Source: Deltaproteobacteria bacterium
Lineage (GTDB): Bacteria > Myxococcota > B64-G9
Length of the DNA: 64,000 nucleotides
Assembly: GCA_016935365.1 (NCBI GenBank)
Contig: JAFGRB010000178.1
Location: 389 to 64,388 of the forward strand
Direction of reading: 5' to 3'
Positions within the stretch are counted from its first letter, which is position 1. Every line of letters starts with the position of its first letter. The notes beneath the pieces were generated by a model. It ran no database searches. It was not told the origin of the DNA and saw only the letters and a list, made by a program, of their open reading frames with translations. The translations under genes and the position numbers were made by a program. Shown one piece after another: positions 4,511-62,497 of the stretch.

Positions 4511-4643
4511 GCGGCTACTCTACCCTCGATGGCAGCCAGCCGACAGGAAAAATCCAGATTTCCCACGTCCAGCGTACAGCGCGGATGCCTCGAAAACGGG
4601 GCCAGCTTGCCGAGCACCGTTGCCGCGTGCTAAATTCAGCTCC

Positions 4644-6675: not shown

Positions 6676-7419
6676 TCACTTCGGCGCGATCAGCCCGCGG
6701 AACATCTCCAGCGGCACGGGGAAGATCACCGTGGACGAGTTCTCGGTCGAGATCTCAGCCAAGGTCTGCAGGTAGCGAAGCTGCAGCGCGCTGGGCTCCT
6801 TCTGCAGGGCGGTGGCCGCCTCGGCCAGCTTCTTGGACGCCTGCATCTCGCCCTCGGCGTGGATGACCTTGGCCCGCCGCTCGCGCTCGGCCTCGGCCTG
6901 CTTGGCCATGGCCCGCTGCATCTCCTGGGGCAGGTCGACGTGCTTGATCTCGACCTTGCTCACCTTGACACCCCAGGGATCGGTGTCCGAATCCAGGATG
7001 CTCTGTAGCTGCTCATTGAGGTGCTCTCGCCTGGTCAGCAGGTCGTCCAGGTCCACCTGCCCGAGCACCGAGCGCAGGGTGGTCTGGGCGAGCTGGCTGG
7101 TGTTGTAGAGGTAGTTGTCCACCTCGAGCACGGCCTTGTCCGGGTTGAGAACCCGCATGAAGACGACCGCGTTGACCTGGACCGTGACGTTGTCCTTGGT
7201 GATGATGTCCTGGGGTGGCACGTCCCGGGCGATGGTCCTGAGGTCGACCTTGACCAGCTGGTCGATGAAAGGGATGATGAAGCGCAGGCCTGGCCCCTTC
7301 ATCCCGGCGTACTTGCCCAGCCTGAAGATCACGCCCCGCTGGTACTCCAGGATGGTGCGCAAACCCATGAGGATGAACAGCACCACGATTCCTACCGGCA
7401 CTCCGATCGCATAGCCCAT
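6676..7419 (-). CDS. SPFH/band-7 (stomatin-like) membrane protein
   Basis: N-terminal TM then an SPFH domain ([10 protein letters not shown]..., coiled-coil tail); SD GGAGGG; sits downstream of NfeD. Confidence 0.85.
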
Positions 7420-7448
7420 TGGATCCCTCCGTCGCTTTGACTTCGCGT

Positions 7449-9101: not shown

Positions 9102-9105
9102 GATC

Positions 9106-9966
9106 TCACGTCTCCTCCTCCGCCGCTCTCGCCATCTCGGCCATGACCAGCTGCACGTCCTGCCAGACCGGTTTCTTGGCGGCCTCGTTGCGCAGCAGGT
9201 AGGCGGGGTGGTAGGTCGGCAGCAATCGCGATCCGTCCGGCATGTCGTAGAGCCGGCCGCGCAGCCGCCCCAGGGAGCGCTCGGTGCCCAGCAGGTACTG
9301 GGCCGCCGTGGCGCCCAGGCAGATGATGTAGCGCGGGCGGATGATCTCGAGCTGCCGGGCCAGAAAGACGCCGCAGGTGCGCATCTCGTCCGGCTCGGGC
9401 GTGCGGTTGCCGGGCGGGCGGCACTTGACCACGTTGCAGATGTAGACCTCGGAGCGCTGCACGCCCATGGCGGCCAGGATACGGTCGAGCAGCTGGCCGG
9501 CCGGGCCCACGAAGGGCCGGCCGCAGCGATCCTCCTCGCCGCCCGGGCCCTCGCCCACCAGCACCAGCCGCGCCGTGGGGTGGCCCTCGCCGAAGACGAT
9601 GTGCTGCCTGCGCTCGTGCAGGCGGCAGCGGGTGCAGCCGCCCAGCCGCTGCCGGAGGAGGTCGAGCTCGGCCCCGGCCTGCTCGGCCGACAGCGGGTTG
9701 GGCCGCCATCTCTGCGGGGCGCTCCTGGGCGCGGCCGGCCTGCCGGGGGCGAAGAGCCCCGCCTGCGCCTGCTCGCGGCTCGGCCCGGCTGCGGGTCGAT
9801 CAGAACTGTGCACCAGCTCGACCGGCCCCGGGCTGCGCCGGGGCAGCTGCTGGATGCCGAAGCTCCGCAGCAGGCCCAGGTGGACCTCCAGGTCGCGGAC
9901 GAGGTGAGCGAGCTCGGCGTGCAGGTCCAAGAACACCTCCCGGATTGACCCGCGGGTCCGTCCCAT
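9106..9966 (-). CDS. Uracil-DNA glycosylase, family 4 (Fe-S type)
   Basis: GEGPGGEED...RPFVG.AGQLL motif and Cys residues; stop 4 nt before the NfeD start. Confidence 0.8.
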   Translation of the reverse strand: MGRTRGSIREVFLDLHAELAHLVRDLEVHLGLLRSFGIQQLPRRSPGPVELVHSSDRPAAGPSREQAQAGLFAPGRPAAPRSAPQRWRPNPLSAEQAGAELDLLRQRLGGCTRCRLHERRQHIVFGEGHPTARLVLVGEGPGGEEDRCGRPFVGPAGQLLDRILAAMGVQRSEVYICNVVKCRPPGNRTPEPDEMRTCGVFLARQLEIIRPRYIICLGATAAQYLLGTERSLGRLRGRLYDMPDGSRLLPTYHPAYLLRNEAAKKPVWQDVQLVMAEMARAAEEET

Positions 9967-12623: not shown

Positions 12624-12631
12624 AGCGGCGC

Positions 12632-13507
12632 ATGAGCCCGGCAGCCCACAAGGCCCCCGAGCGCGAGGCCAGGCCCTTTCTCAAGTGGGCCGGCGGCAAG
12701 CGCCAGCTCGTACCCAAGCTGCGTAAGCTCGCCCCGGCGCGCTTCGGCACCTACTTCGAGCCCTTCCTGGGCGGCGGGGCGCTGTTCTTCGCCCTGGTCG
12801 GCGACGGCCGCATCCAGAAGCACAAGGCAGTGCTTTCGGACATCAACGCCGAGCTCGTCAAGACCTACGAGGCCATCCGAGACGACGTCGAGGCCGTCAT
12901 CGCCCGGCTGCACGAGCACGACCGCCAGTTCAAGATGCCGGCCGAAGGTCTCGACGCCGACTACTACTACAAGGTCCGCGCCAGCTCGCCGAGATTGGTC
13001 GCCACCAGGGCCGCCCGGATGATCTTCCTCAACCGCACCTGCTTCAACGGGCTCTACCGGGTCAACGCCAGGGGCCAGTTCAACGTGCCGCTCGGCCGCT
13101 ACAAGAACCCGACCATCTGCGACCCGGACAACCTGAAGGCCGTGGCCCGGGCGCTCGAGAAGGCCCAGCTCAGAGAGCAGGGCTATGAGTCGGTCCTCGA
13201 GCGCGCCGCGCGGGGCGATCTGGTCTACTTCGATCCGCCCTACGTGCCCGTGTCGGCCACGGCCAAGTTCGTCTCCTACGGCAAGGACGGCTTCGACATG
13301 CAGGACCAGGAGCGCCTGGCCGGGGTCTTCAGGGCCCTGGCCGAGAAGGGCGTCCAGGTCATGCTGTCGAACTCGGACACCCCCGCCGTCCGGAGGATGT
13401 ACCGCGGCTTCAGGCTGGAGCGGGTCGAGGCGCGCCGCTCGGTCAACTCGCGCAAGGACCGCCGCGGCCCGGTGGGCGAGCTGGTCGTGATGAGCTGGGA
13501 GGGCTGA
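12632..13507 (+). CDS. D12-class N6-adenine DNA methyltransferase (Dam family)
   Basis: FLKWAGGKR and FDPPY motifs. Confidence 0.9.
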   Translation: MSPAAHKAPEREARPFLKWAGGKRQLVPKLRKLAPARFGTYFEPFLGGGALFFALVGDGRIQKHKAVLSDINAELVKTYEAIRDDVEAVIARLHEHDRQFKMPAEGLDADYYYKVRASSPRLVATRAARMIFLNRTCFNGLYRVNARGQFNVPLGRYKNPTICDPDNLKAVARALEKAQLREQGYESVLERAARGDLVYFDPPYVPVSATAKFVSYGKDGFDMQDQERLAGVFRALAEKGVQVMLSNSDTPAVRRMYRGFRLERVEARRSVNSRKDRRGPVGELVVMSWEG

Positions 13508-13902
13508 TGGCCGGACGAGAGACCGCCCCCGCATCCGGCAAGGCGCTCGAGCAGGCCGTGCAGCGGGTGGCCGAGGGGCTCGGGCTGGACTGCGCGTCCC
13601 AGGTCCGCGTGGGGCGCCGGATCTGGGGCGCCGAGCGGCGGATCGACCTGGTGCTGCGCGATCGGCAGAGCGGGCGCCGCCTGGGCCTGGAGTGCAAGTT
13701 CCAGGGCACGGTCGGCTCGGCCGAGGAGAAGATCCCGGCCCTGATCGACGACATCGCCGCCTGGCCGATCGACGGCCTGGTGGTCATCAGCGGGGAGGGC
13801 TTCTCGGCCAACATGAAGGCCTTCCTGCTCTCGACCGGCAAGGTCGTCTACCTCGAGGACCTCGAGATCTGGCTCAGGCTCTACTTCGGAATGGACCTGT
13901 AG
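13507..13902 (+). CDS. Small PD-(D/E)xK-fold nuclease (Hjc/YraN-like); candidate cognate restriction endonuclease
   Basis: IDLVLRD...GLECKF matches the D...(D/E)xK catalytic motif; start overlaps the dam stop (TGATG). Confidence 0.5.
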   Translation: MAGRETAPASGKALEQAVQRVAEGLGLDCASQVRVGRRIWGAERRIDLVLRDRQSGRRLGLECKFQGTVGSAEEKIPALIDDIAAWPIDGLVVISGEGFSANMKAFLLSTGKVVYLEDLEIWLRLYFGMDL

Positions 13903-19839: not shown

Positions 19840-22800
19840 TTGCATGTCACGGCCGCATGGTACCATATTCCCAACGTGGAACCGACCGTCGTCCACACGC
19901 CGGCCGAGTTGGGCGTGCGCCTGATCGAGTTCCTGCGGGAGCTGGAGAGCCGGCTCGGCCGCCGGGCCGCGGTGCTCGTGCCGCGCGAGGCGCTGGCGCA
20001 CGCGCTCCGGCGCCGGGTGCTGGAGGAGACCGACGGCGCGGCCTTGCTCGCCGGGGTGGCCTTCCTCAAGCCGGATGCCTTCGCGGCCGAGATCTGCGCC
20101 CGGGCGGGCCGGCCCCTGGGCGCCGGCATCGAGAGCGCCTGGCCCGCCGTGCTCGCCCAGCTGATCGAGGACGGCGCCCTGGACGGCGAGCTGCGCACCC
20201 TCGACGCGGATCACCTCCGCGCCCACGAGGCCTACCCGCGGGCCATCCAGTCCTGCCTGCTGGAGCTGGACGCGGCCGGCCTGGGGGCCGAGCAGCTCTT
20301 CTCGCTCAAGGGCGAGCTGCCGGGTGCGAGCCGCGACCGGCTCCACGATCTGGCGGTCTTCCGGCACGCCCTGGACGCCCGGCTCGGCGGCCAGACCCGC
20401 ACCCGGGCCGACCTGCGGCGCGAGGCCGTCAGGTGCCTGCGCGCCTCGCCGGCGCTGGCCCGCGCCTTCGGCCCGGTCTGCATCGTCAGCCTGGAGCGCC
20501 ACGAGCGCTCGCTCTGGCCGCTCCAGCAGGCGCTGGGCCCGGTGCCCGTTCTGCGGCTCGATCCTGGCGAGGGAGACGAGCCGGCGCCCCGCCTGGACCG
20601 GCTCGACTTCGAGCTCAGCCTCCACGGCGGCTGCCAGGACGAGATCGACGCCGCGGCTTGCTGGGTCGAGCGCCAGGTGCTCGAGCGGGGCGTGCCCCTG
20701 GGCGAGCTGGCCCTGGTGGGCACCGACCGTCAGCTCATGGCCTGCCTGGCCCAGGAGCTCGAGGTGCTCGTCGGCGAGCAGGGCCTGATCGCCGAGCAGC
20801 CCGCGCTGGCCACCTCCGAGGGCGCGCTGGTCGAGCTCGGCCTGGATGCCGTCCTGGCGGGCCTGCCCCGGGAGATGCTGCTCGACTTCCTGGCGGGCGT
20901 GGATCCCGACTTCTCGCCGGGCACCGCCCTCCGCGCGCTCGACTCCGCAGCGATGCTGGGCGGGCGAGCCGGGGCCTGCAGTGCCTGGCGCCAGCGGCTG
21001 GGCGCGCTGCAGCCCGACCTGCTACAGCGCATCGCGCCGCTTCTCGATCTGGCCGAGCTCGTCGAGCGGGACGCCCCCCTGCCGCAGACCATCCAGGCCT
21101 TCCTGGGCCTCTTGGATCTCTTCCCGGACCGGAGCGCCGACGCACGCTACGGCCAAGCCGATGAGGCCCACGGGCCCATCGAGCTGATCCGCCAGGAGAG
21201 CGAGGCGCTGCTTCGGGTGCTCCGGCCTGCGAGCTCGCTGCTTCGCGGCCGGAGCGGCCTGCGGACCTTGGCGGATGCGGTCGGGCAGATGCGCGTGCGC
21301 AGCGGGCGCTACGGCCAGGCCCGGATCTGGCTGGACACGCCCGAGCGCACGGCGGGCCTGCCTTTCGAGGCCCTGCGCTTCGTCGGCCTGTGCGAGGGCA
21401 GCATCCCGCCCAGCCCCAGCGAGGATCCGCTGCTGTCCGACATCGACCGGGGGCGGCTGCTGGCCGTGCTGCCCGAGCTTCAGCGCCCGCAGCTGGTCCT
21501 GAAGGCCGACCTGGCCAGGGAGAGCAAGCGGGCCGCCATCGCCTGCGCGCTGGCCACACGTCGGAGCCTGTCCGCCAGCGCGGCCCGGCAGCAGATCGGC
21601 GGCGAGCAGCGCGAGCCGAGCACCTTCCTGCTGGAGCTGGCCGCCTGGACCGGTCAGCGCTTCGGCGAGGGCTCACCGCTGCCGAGCCTGTCCGAGCTGC
21701 GCCGGCACTTCGCCACCCCCGCCAAGCGGCGGCTCGCCGACTGGAAGCAGCGCCACCCGCACGGCTTCGCGCGCAAGGCGAGCTGCCTGGGCCAACGCGG
21801 TGACGCGGTCTGCGTGCCCGCCGGCTGGCTGCAGGACGGCGCGCTCCAGGCCACGGCCGCGCTCATGCGGGCCGCCGCGGACGAGGCCAGCTCGAGCCAG
21901 GCCGACGGCCTGGCCGGCGAGGCGCCCGATCGCCCCGGGCTGCCGGACGGCGCCAGCCTGAGCGTCCGGGAGCTCACGCTCCTGCTCGCCTGCCCGCTGC
22001 GCTTCGCCCGGGAGGTCCTGCTCGGCCTGCAGCCGCCCGCCGCCTTCGGCTCGGCCTGGGAGCTGGATGCGCGCATCCGCGGCAGCCTCCTGCACCGCGT
22101 GGTGCAGCGGATCTTCAACGCCTTCGGCCAGCAGGTGCTCGACCGGAGCGACGCGATCGCGGACCGCGCCAGCGCCATCCTCGACGAGGAGCTCGAGCGC
22201 CAGCTCGGCCGCTACCCGCTCGACGGCCCGGCCATCGAGGCCGCGGAGCGGAAGCGGCTCCGGCAGCTCGTGTCCAACGTCATCGACACCTACCGCCACG
22301 CGGGGCTGAGCCGCTTCTGCAGGGCCGAGCAGCCGATCGGCCCCCTGCTGCTCGCCACGCCCGCGGGCGCGCTACACCTGTCGGGCAGGATCGACCTCGT
22401 CTTCGAGCGGCCCGGCGGTGCGCTGGCCGTTCACGACCTGAAGACCGGCCGCGCCAGGCTCCTGGATGCGCGCAAGGCCGCCGAGGACGAACTCGACCTG
22501 GCCGACCTCCAGGTCCTGGTCTACGAGGCCGCCCTGCGGCAGCAGCTCGAGCAAGACGGCGATCCGCTCCTCGGCGCATCCAGCGTGGGCGAGGCCGGGC
22601 TCGTCTTCGCGAGCGCCGGCCGGGCGCTGCGCCAGCGGGTGCTCGCGGGCAGCGCCCTGGATGCCGGCCGGAGCTGGGCGCAGCGCTGCCTGGCCCTGGC
22701 CCGGGAGCTGCTGCAGCGAGGCGCCTTCGTGGCCACGCCGAATCCCGACGATTGCAGCTACTGCCCCTTCTCGTCCGTCTGCGGCGATCGGGCGCCCGAG

Positions 22801-22905
22801 GCCAGCCAGGCGAAGCTCGAGGCCCAGCAGGGCCGCGCAGATCCTCCCGTGCCGCCGGATCTGCTGGCGCTGCGCGCCGGGGCAGCGAGGCGACGAGATG
22901 GCTGA
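19840..22905 (+). CDS. AddB-like PD-(D/E)xK nuclease subunit (no Walker A) with C-terminal Fe-S Cys cluster
   Basis: C-terminal RecB-type nuclease motif GRIDLVFER...HDLKTG and CSYCPFSSVC; 8-nt overlap with addA; an alternative GTG start lies at 19876. Confidence 0.7.
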   Translation: MHVTAAWYHIPNVEPTVVHTPAELGVRLIEFLRELESRLGRRAAVLVPREALAHALRRRVLEETDGAALLAGVAFLKPDAFAAEICARAGRPLGAGIESAWPAVLAQLIEDGALDGELRTLDADHLRAHEAYPRAIQSCLLELDAAGLGAEQLFSLKGELPGASRDRLHDLAVFRHALDARLGGQTRTRADLRREAVRCLRASPALARAFGPVCIVSLERHERSLWPLQQALGPVPVLRLDPGEGDEPAPRLDRLDFELSLHGGCQDEIDAAACWVERQVLERGVPLGELALVGTDRQLMACLAQELEVLVGEQGLIAEQPALATSEGALVELGLDAVLAGLPREMLLDFLAGVDPDFSPGTALRALDSAAMLGGRAGACSAWRQRLGALQPDLLQRIAPLLDLAELVERDAPLPQTIQAFLGLLDLFPDRSADARYGQADEAHGPIELIRQESEALLRVLRPASSLLRGRSGLRTLADAVGQMRVRSGRYGQARIWLDTPERTAGLPFEALRFVGLCEGSIPPSPSEDPLLSDIDRGRLLAVLPELQRPQLVLKADLARESKRAAIACALATRRSLSASAARQQIGGEQREPSTFLLELAAWTGQRFGEGSPLPSLSELRRHFATPAKRRLADWKQRHPHGFARKASCLGQRGDAVCVPAGWLQDGALQATAALMRAAADEASSSQADGLAGEAPDRPGLPDGASLSVRELTLLLACPLRFAREVLLGLQPPAAFGSAWELDARIRGSLLHRVVQRIFNAFGQQVLDRSDAIADRASAILDEELERQLGRYPLDGPAIEAAERKRLRQLVSNVIDTYRHAGLSRFCRAEQPIGPLLLATPAGALHLSGRIDLVFERPGGALAVHDLKTGRARLLDARKAAEDELDLADLQVLVYEAALRQQLEQDGDPLLGASSVGEAGLVFASAGRALRQRVLAGSALDAGRSWAQRCLALARELLQRGAFVATPNPDDCSYCPFSSVCGDRAPEASQAKLEAQQGRADPPVPPDLLALRAGAARRRDG

Positions 22906-25900
22906 GCGCCTCGGAGATCAGGACGCCCGGGATCGGATCGTGCTCGAGCACGGGCGCAACGTGGTGGTCAAGGCCGGCGCGGGCAGCGGAAAGACCCACA
23001 CTCTGATCACCCGCCTGGTCGAGCTGGTCGCCCCGTCGCGTGAGGGCGTCGATCCCATCCCGCTCCGGCGCATCGCGGCCATCTCCTTCACCCGGCGCTC
23101 AGCCGGCGATCTCAAGCTGCAGGCCCGCCGGCGATTGCTGATGGCCCTGGAGACCGCGCGCGAGGCGCCGGTCCGCCGCGAGCTTTTGCGGCGGGCGATC
23201 GGCGAGATGGACGGCGCCTTCTTCGGCACCATCCACTCCTTCGCGCTGCGAATCCTGCAGTCCCGACCGATCGAGTCCGGCCTGGGCCCGGGCCGGGAGC
23301 TCCTGGAGGATACCGCCGACCTGGCGGAGGAGACCTTCGAGGAGCTGCTGCGCTCGGCCCAGCTCGAACGGCTGTCCGAGGTCCTGGACGAAGAGCTCGA
23401 TCCCGCCAGGGTCCAGGAGGTCGAGAAGACCCTGGAGCTCGCGCTCGACGCCGGGCTCCCCCGTCGGACGGCCGGCACCGGCTATGGCCGCAGGTTCGGT
23501 CTCGACGCGCTCATCGCCGAGCTGATCGACAAGCGGGACATCGAGCTGGACCCGCCCCTGCCCCGGGCGCCGAGGCTTTCCGACCTGCGCCCGGAGATCC
23601 GCTCGATCCTGGAGGAGGCCGCCCGGCTCCGGGGCGCGAGCCGGGCCGTGGCCCTGATGCAGGGCTTCGCGCTCGAGCTCGGGCAGCTCGACGAAGGCCT
23701 GCAGGGCGGGGATCTGGTGATTGAGCTCCAGCGCCTCTTCGAGCCCCTGGCCGATCTCGACAAGCTCTACGCCCAGAACCCCCAGGACTTTCCCCAGGAC
23801 GACCACAGGCGCGCCCGCGGTCTGGCGGTGGCGCTTCTGGACAAGCCGCTGCAGAGCGGTCGCTTCGCCTCGCGCAGGCTCCGCAGCGAGCTGCTCGGAC
23901 CAGGCCATGCCTACCTGGCCTGCCGTCTGATGCGCATCGCGCCCGTCGTGCGCTGCCTGTACGATCGGGTCAAGCGCCGGCGGGCCGTGCTCGACTACAC
24001 CGACGTGCTGCTGCTGCTGGCGCGCGCGCTGCGAGACGAGACCGGATTCAGGACCGAGGTCCAGGCGCTCTTCGATCACATCCTGCTCGACGAATGCCAG
24101 GACAACGACCCCCTGCAGGTCGAGATCATCTCCTTCCTGGCGGAGCAAGGAGCCCGGGCGCGGCACTGGCGGGAGGTGCGCTTCAGGCCCGGAGCGCTGA
24201 CCGTGGTGGGGGATCCCAAGCAGAGCATCTACCGCTTCCGCCGGGCCGACATCGCCATCTACGAGGACTTCACCCGAGCGCTCGAGGAGCAGGGCGCGCT
24301 GTGCGAGATCTTGACCTGCAACTTCCGCTCCCGGCCCGAGCTCATCTGCGAGGTCTTCAACAAGCAGGGCCCCGTCCTGCTGCGACGGGTCGACCGGCCA
24401 GCCGGCCAGGCCGAATTCCAGGATCTCACGCCGGCGGGCAACGTCCAGCCGGCCGGCGATGCCGTGGTGCACCGGATCGACTTCGCGGCCCCGGCCCACA
24501 TCCGGCGCCGCGAGGCGCGCCGCTTCGAGGCCGAGGCCATCGCCGCCTACCTGGACGAGCTGCTCCGGGGCGGGCTGGACGTCGAGATCCGCGATCCCGA
24601 CTGCCCGGACGAGCAGCGCGCGCCCCGGCCAGGCGACGTGGTCATCCTGTGCCGCAGCACCTTCGATCTGGATCTCCTCTCGGCGTCTTTGGATCGCCGG
24701 GGCATCGCGCACCTCAAGCGCGGCGGCAAGACCTCCATGCAGGACCCCGCCCTGCGGGCTCTGCTGCTGGCCCTGCGGGCGGTGTCCGATCCGGACGACG
24801 GCGTCGCCCACGCGGCGCTGCTCGCCCCGCCTTTCTTCCCGCTCAGCCTGGCAGACGAGCTGGCCGCGCGCAGCGGCGAGGCCTGCGAGGCGCACCGGGC
24901 TGCGATCCGGCTGCTCGAGGCCCTGCGCCGCCGACGCCACGAGCGGCCCCTGCTGCGCACGGCCAGCCTGCTCATGGAGCAGAGCCAGTTCGCCAGGCTG
25001 GTCTCGGTCCTGCCCAACGGCAGGCAGAGGCTGGCCCTGATCCGCCAGGCCCTCGCCCTGCTGCAGTCCGAGGCGGCCCGCCGAGGTCTGGACTTCGATC
25101 GGGCCACCGCGCTGGGACGATGCTGGGTGGAGCGGCCGCCGCGCTTCGATCCGGCCGAGCCGGACACGGTCGACGCGGTCCGCATCTTCACGACCCACCA
25201 GTCCAAGGGCCTGGAGTTTCCGATCGTCGTGCTCTGGGACGCGCAGGCCGGACGGCCCAGCGGTCCGAGGAGCGCGAGCGCGCTCGAGCTCGCGCGGGAC
25301 GGGAGCCAGTGGAGCCTGAAGATCGGCTGGGTGCACCACGACAGCTCAGACGGCGGTCTGGCTGAGCTGGACGGCGCCCTGGACCGGCTCGAGCGGGATC
25401 GGCTCTACTACGTGGCCACGACGCGCACCCGAGACCTGCTCGCGATCCCCTTTCTGCGCAGCCCGGGCGCGGGCGGCTCGTACCACGCGCTCCTCGTCCA
25501 CCAGATCGCCGCACCCGGCGTGGTCCGGATCATCGATCTCACCGAGATCGAGCGGGCCGCGCCGAGCATGCCGCTGCCCGAGCTGGTGCCCGACGAGCCG
25601 ATCCAGCAGGCCAGCTTCGAGAGCCAGGAGGCCTGGACGGCCGCCCTCGCGGAGAGCGCCCGGCCCAGGATGCGGCCCCGGGCGCCGAGCAGCCGAGCGG
25701 GCGCCGAGCCGGATCCGGCCCCGCCCCGCTACGGTCCGGACTTCGGGACCCTGGTCCACCGGGCCCTCGAGCTGCTGCTCTCGGGAGCGCGCGAGCGGGT
25801 CGAGGACGCCTTCGAGGTGGCCTTCGCGGAGCAGCCCGCGGGCCCGCGCGAGGAAGCGCTGGCCGACGTGCGCCGGGCGATCGCGGCGCTGGACGGCCTG

Positions 25901-26224
25901 CAGCTCCGCCGGGAAGGCATGCTGCTGCTGCCCGAGTATCGCCTGGCCGCGCCCCGGCCCGTCGAGGACGGCAGCGAGCTCGTGGCCGGGCAGATGGACC
26001 TGCTGGCGCTCAGCGGCCGGGAGGCGTGGATCATCGACTTCAAGACCGACCAGGACCTGGGTCCGCACGCCCACGCCCACTACGAGCAGCAGCTCGAGCA
26101 GTACGCCTACATGCTGCGCCGCACCGGCCTGATCGGCAGCCGCGAGATCAAGCAGGCCCTGCTCTTCACCCAGACCGGGCGGGTGCACGTGCTAGGCGGG
26201 CAGCTCAGCCTCCCTTTCGAGTAG
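22898..26224 (+). CDS. addA: AddA/UvrD-family helicase-nuclease
   Basis: Walker A AGAGSGKT, FGTIHSF, helicase motifs, and C-terminal IIDFKTD RecB-like nuclease. Confidence 0.8.
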   Translation: MAERLGDQDARDRIVLEHGRNVVVKAGAGSGKTHTLITRLVELVAPSREGVDPIPLRRIAAISFTRRSAGDLKLQARRRLLMALETAREAPVRRELLRRAIGEMDGAFFGTIHSFALRILQSRPIESGLGPGRELLEDTADLAEETFEELLRSAQLERLSEVLDEELDPARVQEVEKTLELALDAGLPRRTAGTGYGRRFGLDALIAELIDKRDIELDPPLPRAPRLSDLRPEIRSILEEAARLRGASRAVALMQGFALELGQLDEGLQGGDLVIELQRLFEPLADLDKLYAQNPQDFPQDDHRRARGLAVALLDKPLQSGRFASRRLRSELLGPGHAYLACRLMRIAPVVRCLYDRVKRRRAVLDYTDVLLLLARALRDETGFRTEVQALFDHILLDECQDNDPLQVEIISFLAEQGARARHWREVRFRPGALTVVGDPKQSIYRFRRADIAIYEDFTRALEEQGALCEILTCNFRSRPELICEVFNKQGPVLLRRVDRPAGQAEFQDLTPAGNVQPAGDAVVHRIDFAAPAHIRRREARRFEAEAIAAYLDELLRGGLDVEIRDPDCPDEQRAPRPGDVVILCRSTFDLDLLSASLDRRGIAHLKRGGKTSMQDPALRALLLALRAVSDPDDGVAHAALLAPPFFPLSLADELAARSGEACEAHRAAIRLLEALRRRRHERPLLRTASLLMEQSQFARLVSVLPNGRQRLALIRQALALLQSEAARRGLDFDRATALGRCWVERPPRFDPAEPDTVDAVRIFTTHQSKGLEFPIVVLWDAQAGRPSGPRSASALELARDGSQWSLKIGWVHHDSSDGGLAELDGALDRLERDRLYYVATTRTRDLLAIPFLRSPGAGGSYHALLVHQIAAPGVVRIIDLTEIERAAPSMPLPELVPDEPIQQASFESQEAWTAALAESARPRMRPRAPSSRAGAEPDPAPPRYGPDFGTLVHRALELLLSGARERVEDAFEVAFAEQPAGPREEALADVRRAIAALDGLQLRREGMLLLPEYRLAAPRPVEDGSELVAGQMDLLALSGREAWIIDFKTDQDLGPHAHAHYEQQLEQYAYMLRRTGLIGSREIKQALLFTQTGRVHVLGGQLSLPFE

Positions 26225-38170: not shown

Positions 38171-42509
<4,339 letters not shown>

Positions 42510-42514
42510 GGCTC

Positions 42515-42787
42515 CTACTCGTCCTCCCCGAAGAACTCCTCGATCAGCTTGCCCAGCGCTTCGAGCGCCGCCTCGCAGTCCTCACCCTCGGTCTCCACCT
42601 CGATGGTGGAGCCCTGGCAGGCCGCGAGCTGCAGGACCCCCATGATGCTCTTGCCGTTGACCTCCAGGTTGTCCTTCCGCACCCGGACCTCGCTCTGGTA
42701 CCGGTGCGCGAGCTGGACGAAAACCGTCGCCGCCCGGGCGTGCATCCCGAGCTTGTTCCGGATCTCGAAGCTTGCGACGGCCGTCAA
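42515..42787 (-). CDS. ptsH: Phosphocarrier protein HPr
   Basis: GMHARAA His15 motif; 90 aa. Confidence 0.9.
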   Translation of the reverse strand: MTAVASFEIRNKLGMHARAATVFVQLAHRYQSEVRVRKDNLEVNGKSIMGVLQLAACQGSTIEVETEGEDCEAALEALGKLIEEFFGEDE

Positions 42788-43236
42788 CCGGCACCTCCTG
42801 CAGCGCGACTGCTCTTGCCATCACCACCCGAGCGTTTGGCGAGGATATCGGATGCCAGGGAGATGTTCTCCTGGCCCTCGCGCACCATGGCCCGCGCCAT
42901 GACGATCGGATCCTCGAGCTTGCGCATCCTGAGGTCGATGGCCTTGAGCAGCATGGCCAGGTTGAGCCCCGATACGATCTCCACCTTGCCGGGCACGAGC
43001 CTGGCCAGAGCCAGGTTGGCCGGCGAGCCGCCGAAGAGATCGGTCACCACGATGACGCCACAGCCGGCATCCGTTGCGCGGATGGCCTCATCGAGCCTCG
43101 ACTTCACGTCATCGGCCTTCTCGCCGGCCGACACGCCCACCGAAGCCACGTGCTCCTGCTCGCCGGCCACCATCTTCAACACATCCATGAAGGCGTCAGA
43201 CAAGCCCGCGTGAGAAAAGAGGACCAAGCCGACCAT
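42784..43236 (-). CDS. PTS EIIA component, mannose/fructose class
   Basis: EIIA-Man fold with N-terminal LVLFSHAGL; AGGAGG SD. Confidence 0.75.
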   Translation of the reverse strand: MVGLVLFSHAGLSDAFMDVLKMVAGEQEHVASVGVSAGEKADDVKSRLDEAIRATDAGCGVIVVTDLFGGSPANLALARLVPGKVEIVSGLNLAMLLKAIDLRMRKLEDPIVMARAMVREGQENISLASDILAKRSGGDGKSSRAAGGAG

Positions 43237-43244
43237 GCCGCCTC

Positions 43245-45092
43245 CTATCCAGACCGCTCGCTGTCCCGGTGCTGGATGATGACCGGTAGCTCGTTGGCCC
43301 GCAGGCGCTGGCCGAGCTCCTCGGCGATCGCCACGGATCGATGCCGGCCACCGGTGCAGCCGATTCCGACCGTCAAGTAGCTCTTGCCCTCCAGGTCGTA
43401 CAGGGGCCGGAAGGTGGTCAGGAAACACATGACGTGCTCGAGGAAGAGACTCGCATAGGAGTTGCCGAGCACGAAGTCCCGGACCTCCTTGTGGCGCCCG
43501 TCGAGATCCCGCAACTCGGCAGAGAAGTACGGGTTGGGCAGAAACCGCACATCGAAGACGAGATCGACCTGGGGCGGGATGCCGTGCTTGAACCCGAACG
43601 ACACCAGCGCCAGGTTCATTCCCGTGCCCGGCCGGCAGAGGGTGTAGCGCTGCTGGACGAGCTCCCGGAGCTGGTGGGGCGTCAGATCGGTCGTGTCGAT
43701 GACGCGATCGGCACGCTCCCGGAGCCGGGCCAGCAGCTGCCGCTCGTTGCGGATCCCCTCCTCGATGGAGCCCTCCGGGGATAGCGGATGGCGCCTGCGC
43801 GTCTCCGAGTAACGGCGTATCAACACGCGGTCCGCGCAGTCGAGAAACAGGACCTCGACCCGGCCGGCCCCGGCTCGGATCCGGTCGATGTTCTCCTGGA
43901 ACTCGGGCAGAAAGCGGGACTCCCGGGCATCCACCACGAGCGCGATCTGCTCTATCTCACCCGCTTGGCTCGGGAAGAGCTCGACGACCTTGGGCAGCAG
44001 CACGACCGGCAGGTTGTCGATACAGAAAAAGCCGATGTCCTCGAGCGCGTGCACGGCCGTGCTCTTGCCGGAGCCCGACAGGCCGCTCAGCACCACGACG
44101 CGAATGGGATTGCCGGTCGAGTCCAGGGGCAGGTGGTTCATTCCACGATCTCCCCCGGAGTGCCTGGCCGAGCCCTTGTCCTCCAGCGCTTGATCGAGGC
44201 GAGCCCGGAACTCGCGCGCAGAATGGTGCCCTTGCCGCTTGAGCAAGTGATTGCGCGCCGCGACCTCGACCAGCGTGGCGGTGTTGCGGCCGGGAGAGAC
44301 CGGTATCTCCAGATAGGGCAGCTCCACACCGAGCAGGTTGTGGGTCCGATCCTCCACCCCGAGCCGATCCGGGATTTCCTGGGCGTGCCACTCGACGAGC
44401 TCCACGACGAGCTCGACTTTCTTCTGCTCGCGAACGGCGGAAACACCGTAGAGATCCTTGATGTTGATGATGCCCAGACCGCGGATCTCCATGTTGTGCT
44501 GGAGCAATGGCGAGCACCCTCCGAGCAGAGCCAGTGGCGGGCGCTTCCTGAGCATCACGATGTCGTCGGCGACGAGGCGATGGCCGCGCATGACGAGATC
44601 CAGGGCGCATTCGCTCTTGCCGATCCCGCTCTTGCCGAGCATCAGCACGCCGACGCCCAGCACGTCCACCAGCACCGCGTGTACGCCCTTGGACTCCGTC
44701 ATGTGCTCCTGCAGGAACTCGGACAGCCGATCGAAGAGTGTCTCGGCCAGGTGCGAGGAGCTCAGCAGGCAGATGCCGAGACGCTCCGCTTCCTCGTCCA
44801 GCTCCCTTGGGATCGCTTGCCCTGCGGCGACCACGATGCAGGCCGGCCTGTTCATCACCAGGCGCTCGATGACCTGCTCGCGCTCTTCGGGTGTCAGGGC
44901 GTTCAAGTACGCGATCTCGTCATCCAGCATCAGGATGCGATCCGCATCGATCCGCCCGGCCTTGCCCGTCATGGACAGGCCGGGACGCTGGACGCGCGGA
45001 TGATCCACGGAGCGCTCCAGCCCGTTCGAGCCCGAGATCAGGCGCAGGCGCAAATCGAAATCCCGGCTCTCGAGCAACTGGCGGACTTCCAA
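43245..45092 (-). CDS. HprK/P kinase-phosphorylase fused in frame to RapZ (YvcJ) P-loop ATPase
   Basis: N-terminal half carries the HprK Walker A GKSGIGKSE; the C-terminal half starts MNHLPLD...VVVLSGLSGSGKST (RapZ); no intervening stop. Confidence 0.75.
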   Translation of the reverse strand: MEVRQLLESRDFDLRLRLISGSNGLERSVDHPRVQRPGLSMTGKAGRIDADRILMLDDEIAYLNALTPEEREQVIERLVMNRPACIVVAAGQAIPRELDEEAERLGICLLSSSHLAETLFDRLSEFLQEHMTESKGVHAVLVDVLGVGVLMLGKSGIGKSECALDLVMRGHRLVADDIVMLRKRPPLALLGGCSPLLQHNMEIRGLGIINIKDLYGVSAVREQKKVELVVELVEWHAQEIPDRLGVEDRTHNLLGVELPYLEIPVSPGRNTATLVEVAARNHLLKRQGHHSAREFRARLDQALEDKGSARHSGGDRGMNHLPLDSTGNPIRVVVLSGLSGSGKSTAVHALEDIGFFCIDNLPVVLLPKVVELFPSQAGEIEQIALVVDARESRFLPEFQENIDRIRAGAGRVEVLFLDCADRVLIRRYSETRRRHPLSPEGSIEEGIRNERQLLARLRERADRVIDTTDLTPHQLRELVQQRYTLCRPGTGMNLALVSFGFKHGIPPQVDLVFDVRFLPNPYFSAELRDLDGRHKEVRDFVLGNSYASLFLEHVMCFLTTFRPLYDLEGKSYLTVGIGCTGGRHRSVAIAEELGQRLRANELPVIIQHRDSERSG

Positions 45093-45104: not shown

Positions 45105-45575
45105 TCAGCAGCTCGCGTCCTGGGCCAGGATCGCATCGAAGACGGAGTCCGCGTCCTCGGCCTCCAGGAGGGTATGTCGGAAATGCTCGTCCTGAAACAA
45201 GCGATTCAGCCTCGCGAGCGCCTTCAGGTGAGTGCCCTCGGCGTTCTCGGGGATCAAGAGAACGAAAAAGAAGCGGGTCGGCTTCCCGTCGAACGAATCG
45301 AAGTCCACACCCTTGCGGCAACGGCCGAAGCAGGAGATCAGCTTCGGCAGTCCCGGAACGCGGCCGTGGGGAAAGGCGACGCCTTCTTCGATGGCCGTCG
45401 AGCGCAGCTGCTCGCGCTTGAGAAGCACCTGCAACAAGAGATCTCGCTTGAGCTCCTGGTGGTTGCTCACCAGGAGGTCCACGAGAGAGGACAGGATCTC
45501 CTCCTTGCTACCGATGGGTACGGCTGCGGTGACATCCGCCCGCTCGAGGAATGAATTGATCTTCATGGTCGGCAT
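45105..45575 (-). CDS. ptsN: PTS IIA-Ntr nitrogen regulatory protein
   Basis: EIIA-2 fold with the GVAFPHGR phosphorylatable His. Confidence 0.85.
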   Translation of the reverse strand: MPTMKINSFLERADVTAAVPIGSKEEILSSLVDLLVSNHQELKRDLLLQVLLKREQLRSTAIEEGVAFPHGRVPGLPKLISCFGRCRKGVDFDSFDGKPTRFFFVLLIPENAEGTHLKALARLNRLFQDEHFRHTLLEAEDADSVFDAILAQDASC

Positions 45576-45615: not shown

Positions 45616-46167
45616 CTAGTCCCTTCCGGGTGTCTTCGCCTCGATCAAACCCATGTTGCCGTCGTTGCGGCGATAGACGACGTTGATGTCCCTGGTGTTG
45701 GCGTTCATGAAGACGAGGAAGTCGTTGTTCATCAAGTCCATCTGCATGACCGCCTCATCGACCGACATCGGCTTGGCCTGGAACTCCTCGCTGCGGATGA
45801 TCCGGGGCTTGTCCGACTCGACCGTCTCCTGGTCGATCACGTTGTGTCTGACCATGATCTCCTCGCCGATCGAGATGGGTGCGTACTGCCGGATCTTGTC
45901 CTTGTACTTCCGCGCCTGGCGCTCGATCTTGTCGACGGCCGAGTCGATGCTCGAGTACATGTCCTCGGTGTCCTCCTCTCCCCGCATGACGATCCCTCGG
46001 GACATGAGCTTGATATCCGCCTGGTTCCGGTACTTGCTCTTCGCGAGCACGATGTGCACGTCGGCGGGCATGGATACGTACTTCTTGAGCCGGGTGATCT
46101 TCTCCTCGGCATAGCTCTTGAGCGCCTCGGAGGGCTTCATGTTGCGAAACGTCACCGATATCTGCAT
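45616..46167 (-). CDS. hpf: Ribosome hibernation promoting factor (long form)
   Basis: Sigma-54 modulation protein/S30EA family, lying downstream of rpoN. Confidence 0.9.
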   Translation of the reverse strand: MQISVTFRNMKPSEALKSYAEEKITRLKKYVSMPADVHIVLAKSKYRNQADIKLMSRGIVMRGEEDTEDMYSSIDSAVDKIERQARKYKDKIRQYAPISIGEEIMVRHNVIDQETVESDKPRIIRSEEFQAKPMSVDEAVMQMDLMNNDFLVFMNANTRDINVVYRRNDGNMGLIEAKTPGRD

Positions 46168-46207: not shown

Positions 46208-47701
46208 TCAATAAACCCTCTTCCTCTTGCTAGAGGGTAGGATGCCCAAGATATCTCGATACTTGGCGACCGTCCGGCGCGCGATCTTGATGTTCTGCTC
46301 TCCGAGGAGATCGACGATCCTGCGGTCGGACAGCGGCCTGGCCGGGTCCTCCTCCGCCACGATCTGGCGGATCCTCTCCTTGACCGACTCGGACGCCACG
46401 TCCTCGCCCACGGTCCGACGGATGCTCGAGTTGAAGAAGTACTTCAGCTCGTAGATGCCCTGTGGCGTGTGCACGTACTTGTTGGTCGTCACGCGGCTGA
46501 CCGTCGACTCGTGCAAGCTGACGTCCTCGGCCACGTCGCGCAGCACCATGGGCCTCAGAAACGCGATGCCCTTGTCCAGAAACTCCCGCTGATACTTGAC
46601 GATGCTCTCGGTCACCCGGTAGATGGTCCGCTGGCGCTGGTGGATGGAACGGATCAGCCAGACCGCCGAACGCAGCTTGTCCTGGATGTACGAACGGGTC
46701 TCGCCGCCGCGTTTGGCCTCGGCCAGAGCCCTGCGGTAGTAGGGGCTGACGCGCAGCTTGGGCAGGCCGTCCTCGTTGAGCACGATGGTGTACTCGTCGC
46801 CCACCTTGTATACGTAGATGTCCGGCGTGATGTACTGGGGCTCCTCTTCCGAGTAGAAGCGCCCCGGCTTGGGCTCGAGCTGGGAGATCAAGCGCACCGC
46901 CTCGATGATCTCTTCCTTGGGCACTTTCAGCGCCCGGGCGATGGCCTGGAAGTTCTTCCTCTCCACGAGCGACAGGTGGGACTCGATGATCGCGTAGACC
47001 AAGCCGTTCTCGATCTTCAGGTGGCGAGCCTGGACGAGCAGCGACTCCCGCAGGTCGCGGGCTGCCACGCCCACGGGATCGAAGTTCTGGATCGCCTTGA
47101 GCACCTGCTCCACCTCGTCGACGGGCACGTCGAGCTGCTCGGCCAGGCTGTCGGTGATCGTCTTGCCGGCGAGCCGGTCCTCGTCGTCGGCGACCAGGTA
47201 GCCGGCCGGATCGAGGCTGAGGATGATCCGCCCGCCGATGGCCTGCTGCTTCTCGTCGAGAGCGGAGAGCCGCAGCTGCCACAGGAGGTGATCGGCGAGC
47301 GAGGTCTTCTTGGTCAGGACGTTCTCGTAGGAAGGCAGGTCGTCCTTGGACGGTCTCACCCCGGCCCCGGTCGGCACGTAGGAGCCGTAGTTCTCCAGGT
47401 ACTTCTCCCAGTCGATGTCGTTGGCGCCCTCGTCCCCCTTGACCTCCTCGACCCGCTCGGAGCGCTCGAGCCTCTCCTCGACCCGCTCGGCTTTCTCCTC
47501 AGCCTTGCTGCCCGAGTCGCTCGGCTCCTTGGCGTCCGTCTCCTGCTCGTCGAGGATCGGGTTCTCGAGCATCTCCTGGCCGACGAGATCGTTCAGCTCG
47601 AGCCTGGAGAGCTGCAGCAGCTTGATCGCCTGCTGGAGCTGGGGCGTCATCACCAGCTGCAGCGTCTGTTTGAGTGAGAGGACCTGCCTGAGTTCGGTCA
47701 T
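46208..47701 (-). CDS. rpoN: RNA polymerase sigma-54 factor
   Basis: N-terminal activator-interacting region, core-binding region and C-terminal RpoN box. Confidence 0.95.
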   Translation of the reverse strand: MTELRQVLSLKQTLQLVMTPQLQQAIKLLQLSRLELNDLVGQEMLENPILDEQETDAKEPSDSGSKAEEKAERVEERLERSERVEEVKGDEGANDIDWEKYLENYGSYVPTGAGVRPSKDDLPSYENVLTKKTSLADHLLWQLRLSALDEKQQAIGGRIILSLDPAGYLVADDEDRLAGKTITDSLAEQLDVPVDEVEQVLKAIQNFDPVGVAARDLRESLLVQARHLKIENGLVYAIIESHLSLVERKNFQAIARALKVPKEEIIEAVRLISQLEPKPGRFYSEEEPQYITPDIYVYKVGDEYTIVLNEDGLPKLRVSPYYRRALAEAKRGGETRSYIQDKLRSAVWLIRSIHQRQRTIYRVTESIVKYQREFLDKGIAFLRPMVLRDVAEDVSLHESTVSRVTTNKYVHTPQGIYELKYFFNSSIRRTVGEDVASESVKERIRQIVAEEDPARPLSDRRIVDLLGEQNIKIARRTVAKYRDILGILPSSKRKRVY

Positions 47702-47716: not shown

Positions 47717-48469
47717 TCAGTCCATCTGGAACCGCTCACCGAGGTACATCGCTCGCGCCCGCTCGCTGCGGGCGATCTCGGCCGGCGTCCCTTCCTCCAG
47801 CAGCCTGCCATCTTTGACAATATACGCTCTGTCGCAGGATGACAAGGTTTCCCTGACCGCGTGATCGGTCACCAGAAGGCCGATCCCCGCCTCGGCGAGC
47901 CGTCGGATCTGGCCTCGGATCTCCTCGACGGTCAGCGGATCGACGCCCGAGAAAGGCTCGTCGAGCAGCACGAAGCTCGGGCTCTGGATCATGGCCCGGC
48001 CGATCTCCAGCCGCCGCCTCTCCCCGCCCGAGAGCATCGAGGCCAGCGAGTCGGCCACCCGGCCCAGGTCGTACTCCTCGATCACCTCGTCCGCCCGGCG
48101 CGCAGCCTCGGGGCCCTTGACCCCTGCGGCCTCGAGGTAGAGCCGCAGGTTGTCCCGCACCGACAGGCGCTGGAAGACGGACGGCTCCTGGGAGAGATAG
48201 CCGATCCCGGCCCGCGCCCGCCGGTGCATGGGCCAGCCCGAGATGTCGATGCCCTTGAGCAAGACCCGGCCGGCGTCCGCGGGCAGGAGCCCGATCAGCA
48301 TGTGGAAGCTGGTCGTCTTGCCGGCCCCGTTGGGGCCCAGCAGCCCGACCACCTCGCCCGGCCCCACCCGCAGGTCCAGCCCGTCGACCACCCTGCGGCC
48401 CCGGAAGGACTTCTGCAAGCCCTGCGCGAGCAGGGCGTCGGTCTCGCCGCGCTTCTCTTCCGCGCTCAA
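47717..48469 (-). CDS. lptB: LPS export ABC transporter ATP-binding protein
   Basis: ABC ATPase motifs (GPNGAGKTT, LSGGERRRL) in the conserved position 5' of rpoN. Confidence 0.9.
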   Translation of the reverse strand: MSAEEKRGETDALLAQGLQKSFRGRRVVDGLDLRVGPGEVVGLLGPNGAGKTTSFHMLIGLLPADAGRVLLKGIDISGWPMHRRARAGIGYLSQEPSVFQRLSVRDNLRLYLEAAGVKGPEAARRADEVIEEYDLGRVADSLASMLSGGERRRLEIGRAMIQSPSFVLLDEPFSGVDPLTVEEIRGQIRRLAEAGIGLLVTDHAVRETLSSCDRAYIVKDGRLLEEGTPAEIARSERARAMYLGERFQMD

Positions 48470-49002
48470 GGCGCACGCTCCCGCTCGGATTCCGGCTCCT
48501 GCTCGCGGGCCGGCACGCGGATCTGCGCCCGGGGGCGCGTCACGTGCACCTCGTCCCTGTCGAGCAAGTACAGGATGCGCTCGCCCCGGATCCGGTTCTC
48601 GCCCTCGTGCACCCAGGGCTTGCCGGTGCAGACGATCCGCCCGGCTGTCCGGTCGTACTCCGCCCGCTGGCAGTGGCCGCGCCTGGCCTTCTGGACTATT
48701 TGGACGTCGCCGGAGAAGACCATCCGCCGGATCGCCCGGTCCGACCCGCCTCGCCCGTCCTCGGCGCCCTCCTCAGCGGGAGCGTATTGCACCTCGAGTC
48801 GCTGGCAGCGGATGCTGAGGTCGCCCTGGGTGGCCTCCACGCTGCCCTCGAAGACCGCCCGGTTCTTCTTCTGGAAGACCCGCAGGCGATCGGAGCGGAT
48901 CTGGACCGGCGGCTCTTCCGCCCGGGCCGGCTCCTCCGCGGCCATCGCCGCCCCTGCCGCGGCCAGCGACAGGGCCAGCAGCGCGCAGCCGAGCCTCATC
49001 GC
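48466..49002 (-). CDS. lptA: LptA-like periplasmic LPS transport protein (OstA N-terminal domain)
   Basis: Signal peptide and OstA-like beta-jellyroll; stop overlaps the lptB start. Confidence 0.65.
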   Translation of the reverse strand, partial: AMRLGCALLALSLAAAGAAMAAEEPARAEEPPVQIRSDRLRVFQKKNRAVFEGSVEATQGDLSIRCQRLEVQYAPAEEGAEDGRGGSDRAIRRMVFSGDVQIVQKARRGHCQRAEYDRTAGRIVCTGKPWVHEGENRIRGERILYLLDRDEVHVTRPRAQIRVPAREQEPESERERAP

Positions 49003-49268
49003 TGACCTCGCCCGTCCCAAAGCACCGCCTCCAGCTCTCCCGACACCCCGCACGCCTCGAGCTGCCCGCCCTCCTCGTCGAGCCGCAGCGACTCGGCCCG
49101 GAGCTCGAAGCGCCGCTCGGCGCCCCGGTACTGCCTCACCACGACCCCCTCGAGCCGCACGTCCACGCTCCGCCCGTCCGCAGCGGGAGCCGATCCGCCC
49201 CCCCCACCGCAGCCGAGCAGGCAGAGTGCAAGCCAGAAGATGCGCCAGAAAGCGCCCATCGCAAGCAC
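48996..49268 (-). CDS. Short LptC-like lipoprotein
   Basis: Lipobox LLGCGGG; 90 aa, in the conserved position upstream of lptA. Confidence 0.45.
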   Translation of the reverse strand: MLAMGAFWRIFWLALCLLGCGGGGGSAPAADGRSVDVRLEGVVVRQYRGAERRFELRAESLRLDEEGGQLEACGVSGELEAVLWDGRGQR

Positions 49269-61696: not shown

Positions 61697-62497
61697 CTAC
61701 TGGACGCCGCCCAGGATGATGGGCAGGCCGTCCTTGCCCGAGCCGACGATGACCACCTTGGCGTTCTGGCTCTTGGCGAGCTTCTCGGTGGCCTCGATGC
61801 CCATGTAGCGCAGCCAGATGTCGTTGATGCTCTCGGTGATGATCCGGTTGCGCCTGGCGATGCCCTCGGCCTCGATGCGCTTGCGCTCGGCCTCCTGGCG
61901 CTCCTTGTTGAGGGTGAACTCCATCTTGAGCGCCTTCTGCTCCTCCTCGAGCTTCTCGTTGATGGCCACCTTGAGCTTCTGGGGCAGGTCGACGTTGCGC
62001 ACCAGGATGGCCTCCAGCAGGACCGGGCGGCCCTTGATGCGCGCGGTGACCTCCTTGAAGATGTCCTGCTCGACCTCCAGGCGCTTGGTGGAGTAGATCT
62101 CCTCCGGCGCGTACTGGCCGCCCACCTCCCGGGCGACCGAGCGGATCGAGGGCGCCATCAGCACGTCGTAGTAGTCGGGCCCCAGGGTCGTGTGGAGCTT
62201 GTACAGGTCGTCGGCCAGGGCCCGGTAGCGCACCGAGGTCTCCAGCTTGATGCTCAGGCCGTTCTTGGCCAGCACGTGCAGGTCCTCGTTGCGGTCCTGC
62301 GTGCGCACGTCGTAGGTGTACATCTTGTTCCACGGCGCGACGAAGTACCAGCCCTCTCCATAGGAATCCTCCTGGGTCCCGCTCCAGGCAGTCCACAGCA
62401 CCCCGCTCTGGCCCGACTCCACCTTGGCGCAGCCGGCCAGGCCCGAGACGGCCAGCAGCGCGAGGCAAGCGATGGCGGCCGATGTCCCGTGTCGCAT
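61697..62497 (-). CDS. SPFH/band-7 (prohibitin/HflC-like) lipoprotein
   Basis: Lipobox LAGC; SPFH domain with a coiled-coil tail. Confidence 0.7.
   Translation of the reverse strand: MRHGTSAAIACLALLAVSGLAGCAKVESGQSGVLWTAWSGTQEDSYGEGWYFVAPWNKMYTYDVRTQDRNEDLHVLAKNGLSIKLETSVRYRALADDLYKLHTTLGPDYYDVLMAPSIRSVAREVGGQYAPEEIYSTKRLEVEQDIFKEVTARIKGRPVLLEAILVRNVDLPQKLKVAINEKLEEEQKALKMEFTLNKERQEAERKRIEAEGIARRNRIITESINDIWLRYMGIEATEKLAKSQNAKVVIVGSGKDGLPIILGGVQ

Follow-up and report, generated by a model that had tools for sequence, protein, structure and literature searches.

A single unbroken open reading frame (ORF) of 615 amino acids (aa), in which HprK/P is followed by RapZ, lies on the minus strand (43245..45092) of a 64,000-nucleotide stretch of DNA from Deltaproteobacteria bacterium (Myxococcota; GenBank assembly GCA_016935365.1, contig JAFGRB010000178.1, positions 389 to 64,388), henceforth termed the window. 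An initial annotation had read this arrangement as a covalent fusion that couples serine phosphorylation of HPr to the function of RapZ. Here, we conclude that hprK and rapZ are very probably ancestrally separate, translationally coupled genes that have been joined by one extra G, which is either an error or a very young mutation. A conserved HprK tail and its stop codon lie hidden in the +1 frame of the window, and the genes are unfused in its relatives; the proposed coupling by fusion is not supported by these results. The locus is an ordinary, already known hprK-rapZ pair within a known cluster that carries a one-base lesion or artefact, and the sequence comparisons indicate no selected, conserved bifunctional architecture, whether the G is an error or real.

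The 615-aa ORF and its hidden reading frame

The ORF starts with a TTG codon located 12 nucleotides (nt) past the ptsN stop. Pfam assigns two domains to each of its halves:

aa 3-127, Hpr_kinase_N (PF02603)
aa 130-298, Hpr_kinase_C (PF07475)
aa 330-483, RapZ-like_N (PF03668)
aa 492-611, RapZ C-terminal domain (PF22740)

The HprK half matches the NCBIfam equivalog TIGR00679 with 329.3 bits (cutoff 240; aa 2-302, covering model positions 2-299/300), and the S. xylosus HprK structure 1ko7 aligns with aa 15-313 of the ORF (E = 2e-62). Over its full length, motifs included, this half resembles known HprK/P proteins (TIGR00679; structures 1KO7, 1JB1/1KKL and 1KNX). The defining motifs of HprK/P are a GxSGxGKS P-loop and the HprK signature. 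Both are intact (Walker A GKSGIGKS at 153-160, signature MEIRGLGI at 201-208), as is HRLVADD at 171-177. The RapZ half matches the equivalog NF003828 with 341 bits (cutoff 244; aa 332-610, covering model positions 1-277/278) and is likewise similar over its full length to RapZ/YvcJ (NF003828; E. coli 5O5O/5O5Q). The E. coli structure 5o5o aligns with aa 332-613 (chain residues 3-281 of 284, E = 3e-64), and the motifs GLSGSGKST (Walker A, 337-345), LVVDAR (385-390), RFLPNPY (516-522) and GCTGGRHRSV (578-587) are intact.

The equivalog match, both Pfam domains, the motifs and a nearby gene for an HPr with the Ser46 substrate site place the first half in the HprK/P family, with predicted kinase/phosphorylase activity. 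On corresponding grounds (equivalog, both Pfam domains, Walker A/B and the C-terminal motif), the second half is a RapZ/YvcJ family member of predicted function. To our knowledge, the role of E. coli RapZ as an adaptor of the small RNAs GlmZ/GlmY for RNase E has not been established outside Enterobacteria. As a description of the locus the initial annotation was accurate: ORF, Pfam and equivalog data agree with its uninterrupted 615-aa ORF, with its Walker A motifs GKSGIGKSE and GLSGSGKST and with a linker ahead of MNHLPLD. The junction residues ...SARHSGGDRG-MNHL... occupy aa 308-321, and the gap between the structured parts of HprK and RapZ is ~16-27 residues, as judged from the PDB alignments.

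At the junction, the coding strand in frame 0 reads ...GCC AGG CAC TCC GGG GGA GAT CGT GGA ATG AAC.... Read in the +1 frame, the same region gives ...CCG GGG GAG ATC GTG GAA TGA, i.e., ...P-G-E-I-V-E-stop. The elements of the junction are:

43245..44141 (-), rapZ proper, 298 aa starting MNHLPLDSTGNPIRVVVLSG; the orthologues in the related loci L002, L004 and L006 (see below) have the same start
44138..44141 (-), ATGA, in which the rapZ ATG (44141-44139) overlaps the out-of-frame hprK stop TGA (44140-44138), read from the sequence
44138..45092 (-), hprK in its putative ancestral or corrected form, 317 aa ending ...ARHSGEIVE-stop, with one G removed; the coordinates include the extra base
44142..44153 (-), frame-0 'linker' codons GGA GAT CGT GGA (G-D-R-G), overlapped in the +1 frame by GAG ATC GTG GAA (E-I-V-E)
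44150..44156 (-), Shine-Dalgarno-like GGGGGAG, whose GGAG core precedes the rapZ ATG by 8 nt, read from the sequence and presumed functional
44152..44156 (-), G5 homopolymer (C5 on the plus strand), the putative site of a 1-nt insertion at which frame 0 changes to +1, located by the frame-switch model and by codon view

The ATG at 44141-44139 encodes the internal M318 (MNHLPLD...), and the ATGA overlap is, as a sequence feature, a signature of translational coupling. The G run is positioned 10 nt upstream of this overlap, inside the interval (~44130-44190) that the initial annotation had already named for a check on a missed stop or frameshift. Deletion of one G from the run restores an HprK of 317 aa and a RapZ of 298 aa. 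Conversely, expansion of G4 to G5 at 44152-44156 would bring the final few codons of hprK into register with rapZ, so that the hprK stop would be skipped and both genes read as one 615-aa ORF. We infer from this that the event was an insertion and that the ancestral state comprised a 317-aa HprK ending in ...HSGEIVE-stop and a 298-aa RapZ.

The bases of the junction carry the imprint of the +1 frame. Genes of the window have a GC content at third codon positions (GC3) of 0.907, yet none of the four linker codons in frame 0 ends in G or C (p ~7e-5), as compared with five of six codons in the +1 frame. A frame-switch model based on positional GC content placed the best switch at 44152-44158, with a likelihood ratio of ~1.6e4 over a continuous frame 0; among 2,618 control positions within bona fide genes, just 0.11% reach equal strength. 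Finally, all 88 close HprK homologues, which are unfused and mostly from Myxococcota, terminate at the junction position. The ending [VIL]E-stop is found in 80 of them and [ED]x[VIL]E-stop in 78 (e.g., ...TLGEEVE-stop). The hidden tail of the window, ...SGEIVE-stop, fits the longer pattern, which occurs at 0 of 4,479 +1-frame positions in 12 window genes. Codon usage, likelihood model and homologue tails thus constitute three independent lines of sequence evidence that the junction bases evolved in the +1 frame.

Compared with its homologues, the window HprK as it stands differs in that EIVE is replaced by GDRG and the chain runs on into RapZ. The window RapZ has its start, Shine-Dalgarno site and N-terminus at the orthologous position and differs from known RapZ by a 317-aa N-terminal HprK extension if it is read from the upstream start. 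The E-x-V-E-stop ending is conserved in the 78 homologues although the upstream tail varies greatly in length and sequence. Since this ending overlaps the rapZ Shine-Dalgarno site and the [AG]TGA (junctions 44138-44156 in the window, L006:4940-4957, and L038, L039 and L049), its conservation probably reflects a nucleotide-level constraint from rapZ translation initiation and not one at the protein level.

Unfused relatives and two-domain database entries

A scan of GTDB species representatives yielded 80 loci, 55 of which contain both hprK and rapZ. None of these is fused: an hprK stop precedes rapZ in 55 of 55. This upholds the view of the initial annotation that hprK and rapZ are usually separate adjacent genes, and the comparison of orthologous loci that it had suggested, with a stop between the domains in related genomes, speaks against its fusion. 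The nearest relatives in the scan share 61-81% identity per protein; the homologue search of a 5.8-billion protein set gave none above ~53% identity. The most informative loci are:

L002, closest overall (RpoN 81%, RapZ 77%, MetK 78%), with metK downstream as in the window; without hprK, ptsN abutting rapZ (3526-4897)
L004, nearer than L006 by gene order (metK downstream; RpoN 72%, RapZ 68%); without hprK, ptsN abutting rapZ (3524-4918)
L006, an uncultured Myxococcales metagenome-assembled genome and the closest relative having hprK (HprK 61%, RapZ 70%, RpoN 77%, ten genes syntenic); genes separate, HprK tail ...IEGVVE-stop, GTGA overlap, rapZ starting MNQP... against MNHLP... in the window
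L038, L039 and L049, more distant Myxococcota loci with both genes; separate, with [AG]TGA overlaps

Each of the four Myxococcota loci containing both genes has an [AG]TGA overlap. Synteny with the window is full in L006, L038 and L039 and extends to everything except hprK in L002 and L004. In these latter two loci, RapZ starts at the position equivalent to M318 and the Ser46 motif of HPr is still present; L004 additionally retains a remnant ...CATGGAATGA ahead of rapZ. The sequences suggest that hprK is in the course of loss in the clade of L002 and L004, as it seems, unless a copy resides elsewhere in those genomes. Many betaproteobacterial loci (L005, L007, L010, L013, L034 and L037) show another arrangement, with hprK and rapZ in the same frame and the stop abutting the rapZ ATG or GTG; there, one stop-codon substitution or readthrough would fuse the pair as well.

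The relatives' junctions contain no G5 run and no fused frame. Both observations bear on programmed recoding, in which G5 would act as a slippery site and +1 ribosomal or transcriptional slippage would give a normal HprK (...HSGEIVE-stop) in addition to the fusion. Reasoned from the sequence, +1 slippage of a P-site tRNA-Gly on GGG-GG would yield precisely the ancestral product. However, neither the run nor the fused frame is conserved in any relative, and we recognised neither a slippery heptamer nor a stimulatory element, with no dedicated search made for a stimulatory RNA structure; Rfam and tRNA scans, which covered the window only, found nothing. As a simple lesion is also more parsimonious, recoding appears extremely improbable.

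Two-domain HprK-RapZ proteins do exist in databases. The search of the 5.8-billion protein set returned ~30 of them, all singletons, many with segments rich in Arg, Pro and Gly, as are usual when GC-rich DNA is translated out of frame. When 1.84 billion cluster representatives were searched exhaustively with HMMER, no full-length fused representative appeared, the top matches being single-domain RapZ or HprK (best 347 bits), and no HprK-RapZ fusion is reported in the literature searched. The four cleanest full-length two-domain proteins were inspected at the DNA level:

P0001 (L088:1533-3356), hidden tail AREFADSLERRL...AEED-stop, TGATG overlap; contig name '2x', possibly low coverage
P0003 (L081:4001-6034), hidden tail ...ESSAPPPVGPEKRR-stop, ATGA overlap; 1.2 Mb contig with long-read style naming
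P0005 (L089:3001-4920), hidden tail ...DEDEELEPGGMA-stop, GTGA overlap; G6 run just upstream of the junction
P0006 (L082:4001-6010), hidden tail ...ESSAPPPVVPPPERRK-stop, ATGA overlap; rpoN broken into three ORFs

By their sequences, all four are frameshift products, each with a hidden conserved tail and a stop that overlaps the rapZ start. P0003 and P0006 were considered as a genuine fusion shared by two species and rejected, as their +1-frame tails (ESSAPPPV...RR-stop and ...RK-stop) end at ATGA and L082 is rich in frameshifts; P0001 and P0005 were discarded as genuine fusions on account of the hidden tail and overlapping stop in another frame. Four further entries labelled 'src' (P0002, P0008, P0012 and P0033) lack the RapZ P-loop and look like chimeras of protein-level assembly. 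Spurious 'Rosetta-stone' fusions at ATGA-type overlaps in GC-rich genomes have the same anatomy of hidden tail and stop as the window. The assemblies that contain P0001, P0003, P0005 and P0006 carry other signs of error, whereas the window is otherwise clean.

With these comparisons at hand, the proposal that HprK-RapZ is a bifunctional enzyme which evolved, and is kept by selection, to link HPr-Ser phosphorylation with RapZ function can be weighed. In its favour, the ORF is unbroken and both domains are intact; the adjacency of hprK and rapZ across many phyla also makes a functional link plausible. Yet three of three features looked for in a fusion protein are absent: the fused state is conserved neither in any of the 55 orthologous loci nor as a representative among the 1.84 billion clusters; ancestral stop, tail, Shine-Dalgarno site and start have not been lost and are all present, merely out of frame; and the usage of the linker codons is non-native. 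The two-domain database entries, all singletons of which many show frameshift-derived segments, and the absence of any report in the literature searched also count against it. The bifunctional-enzyme reading is largely refuted, and we consider it highly improbable.

Sequencing error or young mutation

Given an extra G that joined two separate genes, an assembly or sequencing error and a genuine recent mutation are about equally likely. The first would be an indel at a GC homopolymer, with separate hprK (317 aa) and rapZ (298 aa) in the organism and no fusion protein; we assign it slightly less than an even chance. The frame switch maps to a G5 homopolymer, tail, stop, Shine-Dalgarno site and ATG are fully preserved, and codon usage has not been adjusted in the four new codons. 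The four inspected database 'fusions' arose likewise, in assemblies with further signs of error, and no relative is fused. On the other hand, there is no second frameshift in 64 kb despite 22 longer (at least 6 nt) G/C runs, which should be more error-prone, and it is a priori unlikely that a random error falls harmlessly into the last five codons of a gene, a stretch that holds a few percent of coding homopolymers.

Alternatively, the extra G may be a real, recent slipped-strand mutation through which a 615-aa polypeptide is made, possibly together with free RapZ, an explanation to which we give a probability just short of one half. Such a lesion could be tolerated, as only four C-terminal HprK residues change and hprK may be dispensable in the clade. 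The clean assembly fits this explanation, both domains score above their equivalog cutoffs, and a frameshift at the 3' end, with both domains spared, is the type of lesion that survives purifying selection. Moreover, hprK is missing from the otherwise syntenic clusters of L002 and L004 (lost twice), which suggests relaxed selection on the gene. Against a real mutation, a metagenome scan with a junction 20-mer fitting both G4 and G5 gave five matches, all by chance and with unrelated flanks, and no independent sequence of the species; nor does the sequence look adapted to the fused state. HprK/P is hexameric and E. coli RapZ tetrameric, and a linker of ~16-27 aa between a hexamer and a tetramer may be harmful.

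The two explanations predict different proteins. In the separate state, proteins of ~35 and ~33 kDa would be expected, with the HprK C-terminal peptide HSGEIVE and the N-terminal peptide (M)NHLPLDSTGNPIR. In this ancestral or corrected state, HprK/P would phosphorylate and dephosphorylate HPr-Ser46, and RapZ would be made via termination-reinitiation at the ATGA within the rpoN/PTS-Ntr operon (PTS, phosphotransferase system). If the G is real, a fused protein of ~68 kDa would be made, with the replacement of EIVE-stop by GDRG plus RapZ as its sole sequence change and with the predicted tryptic peptides HSGGDR and GMNHLPLDSTGNPIR; free RapZ might also arise from the preserved internal Shine-Dalgarno site and ATG.

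Several observations weigh against two ancestrally separate genes joined by a recent or artefactual G. The HprK and RapZ halves are fully intact with all catalytic motifs present, so a fused product could be functional. The Shine-Dalgarno site, the ATG and the tail could in principle be kept by selection for internal rapZ initiation, so that the preserved signals are no strict measure of the age of the event. Elsewhere, the window is also in good order: every coding segment defined by GC3 ends at its own stop, no other frame is broken at any of the 89 G/C runs of at least 5 nt (including the 22 mentioned above), and the 20 abutting ORFs belong to distinct families, and each family match extends over the full length of the domain. 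A sequencing error is hence not specially expected here, and the extra G could be real. We regard it as unlikely that the G is truly genomic and that, in addition, the 615-aa product is expressed, folded and retains both activities, which would amount to a young natural coupling, possibly accompanied by free RapZ, in a clade that is losing hprK. Were such a young covalent coupling true, nature would have provided a test of whether the two proteins work jointly. A real G would make the strain a natural fusion mutant of modest interest.

The biological weight of the locus is small, as it contains a standard hprK-rapZ pair in a long-known rpoN/PTS-Ntr cluster, and its value is mainly cautionary. 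Because off-frame stops are rare in GC-rich genomes, tight overlaps such as ATGA, GTGA and TGATG yield clean-looking fusions after a single indel. As four of four examined two-domain entries are frameshift products, such entries are unfit as Rosetta-stone evidence for a functional link between HprK and RapZ. Fusions of this kind can be vetted quickly without reads if the alternative frames are searched for a hidden conserved C-terminal tail with its stop and GC3 is tested for a frame switch at the homopolymer.

Gene neighbourhood and other features of the window

The genes around the hprK-rapZ ORF, all assigned by Pfam, are listed in transcriptional order:

48466-49053 (-), lptA-like gene
47717-48469 (-), lptB
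46208..47701 (-), rpoN (sigma-54)
45616..46167 (-), hpf (ribosome hibernation / sigma-54 modulation protein)
45105..45575 (-), ptsN (EIIA-Ntr, PTS_EIIA_2)
43245..45092 (-), hprK-rapZ ORF as it stands (ORF, Pfam and NCBIfam)
42784..43236 (-), EIIA-Man family PTS protein, with its ATG 8 nt beyond the rapZ stop
42515..42787 (-), ptsH (HPr), with His15 and the Ser46 motif NGKSIMG intact
40722..42509 (-), ptsI (Enzyme I)

The order lptAB-rpoN-hpf-ptsN-hprK-rapZ-EIIA(Man)-ptsH-ptsI is the canonical rpoN/PTS-Ntr arrangement, as judged from Pfam assignments of nine neighbours and from synteny with five related loci; the cluster named in the initial annotation, which ran from rpoN to ptsI, was recovered in the same order. 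HPr, the candidate substrate of HprK, is encoded two genes downstream of hprK. The neighbourhood of hprK and yhbJ (rapZ) in Gram-negative bacteria has long been known (Boel et al. 2003, J Mol Microbiol Biotechnol 5:206, cited in PMC2377431). Gene content, order and orientation of this lptAB-rpoN-...-ptsI neighbourhood are identical to those of the window, which departs from it solely by the 1-nt frame lesion between hprK and rapZ. Directly downstream of ptsI, the window contains an adenosylhomocysteinase-like gene and metK (38171-40677, minus strand), and the placement of metK is kept in L002 and L004.

Farther from the cluster, the gene for a D12-class (Dam-like) N6-adenine DNA methyltransferase directly precedes that for a small PD-(D/E)XK nuclease-domain protein (12626-13887, plus strand), a pair that may form a restriction-modification or related module. 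At 19882-26212 (plus strand), a PD-(D/E)XK nuclease protein of ~985 aa precedes a UvrD-type helicase-nuclease of ~1,105 aa, resembling AddB and AddA. The two ORFs overlap by ~460 nt in alternative frames, and a second frameshift at 22442-22905 was considered and rejected, as GC3 identifies two normal adjacent genes. Finally, the window encodes two separate SPFH/Band-7 proteins on the minus strand, one in the region 6679-9107, paired with a three-domain NfeD protein, and one at 61700-62482, followed by a protein with a Big_5 Ig-like domain.

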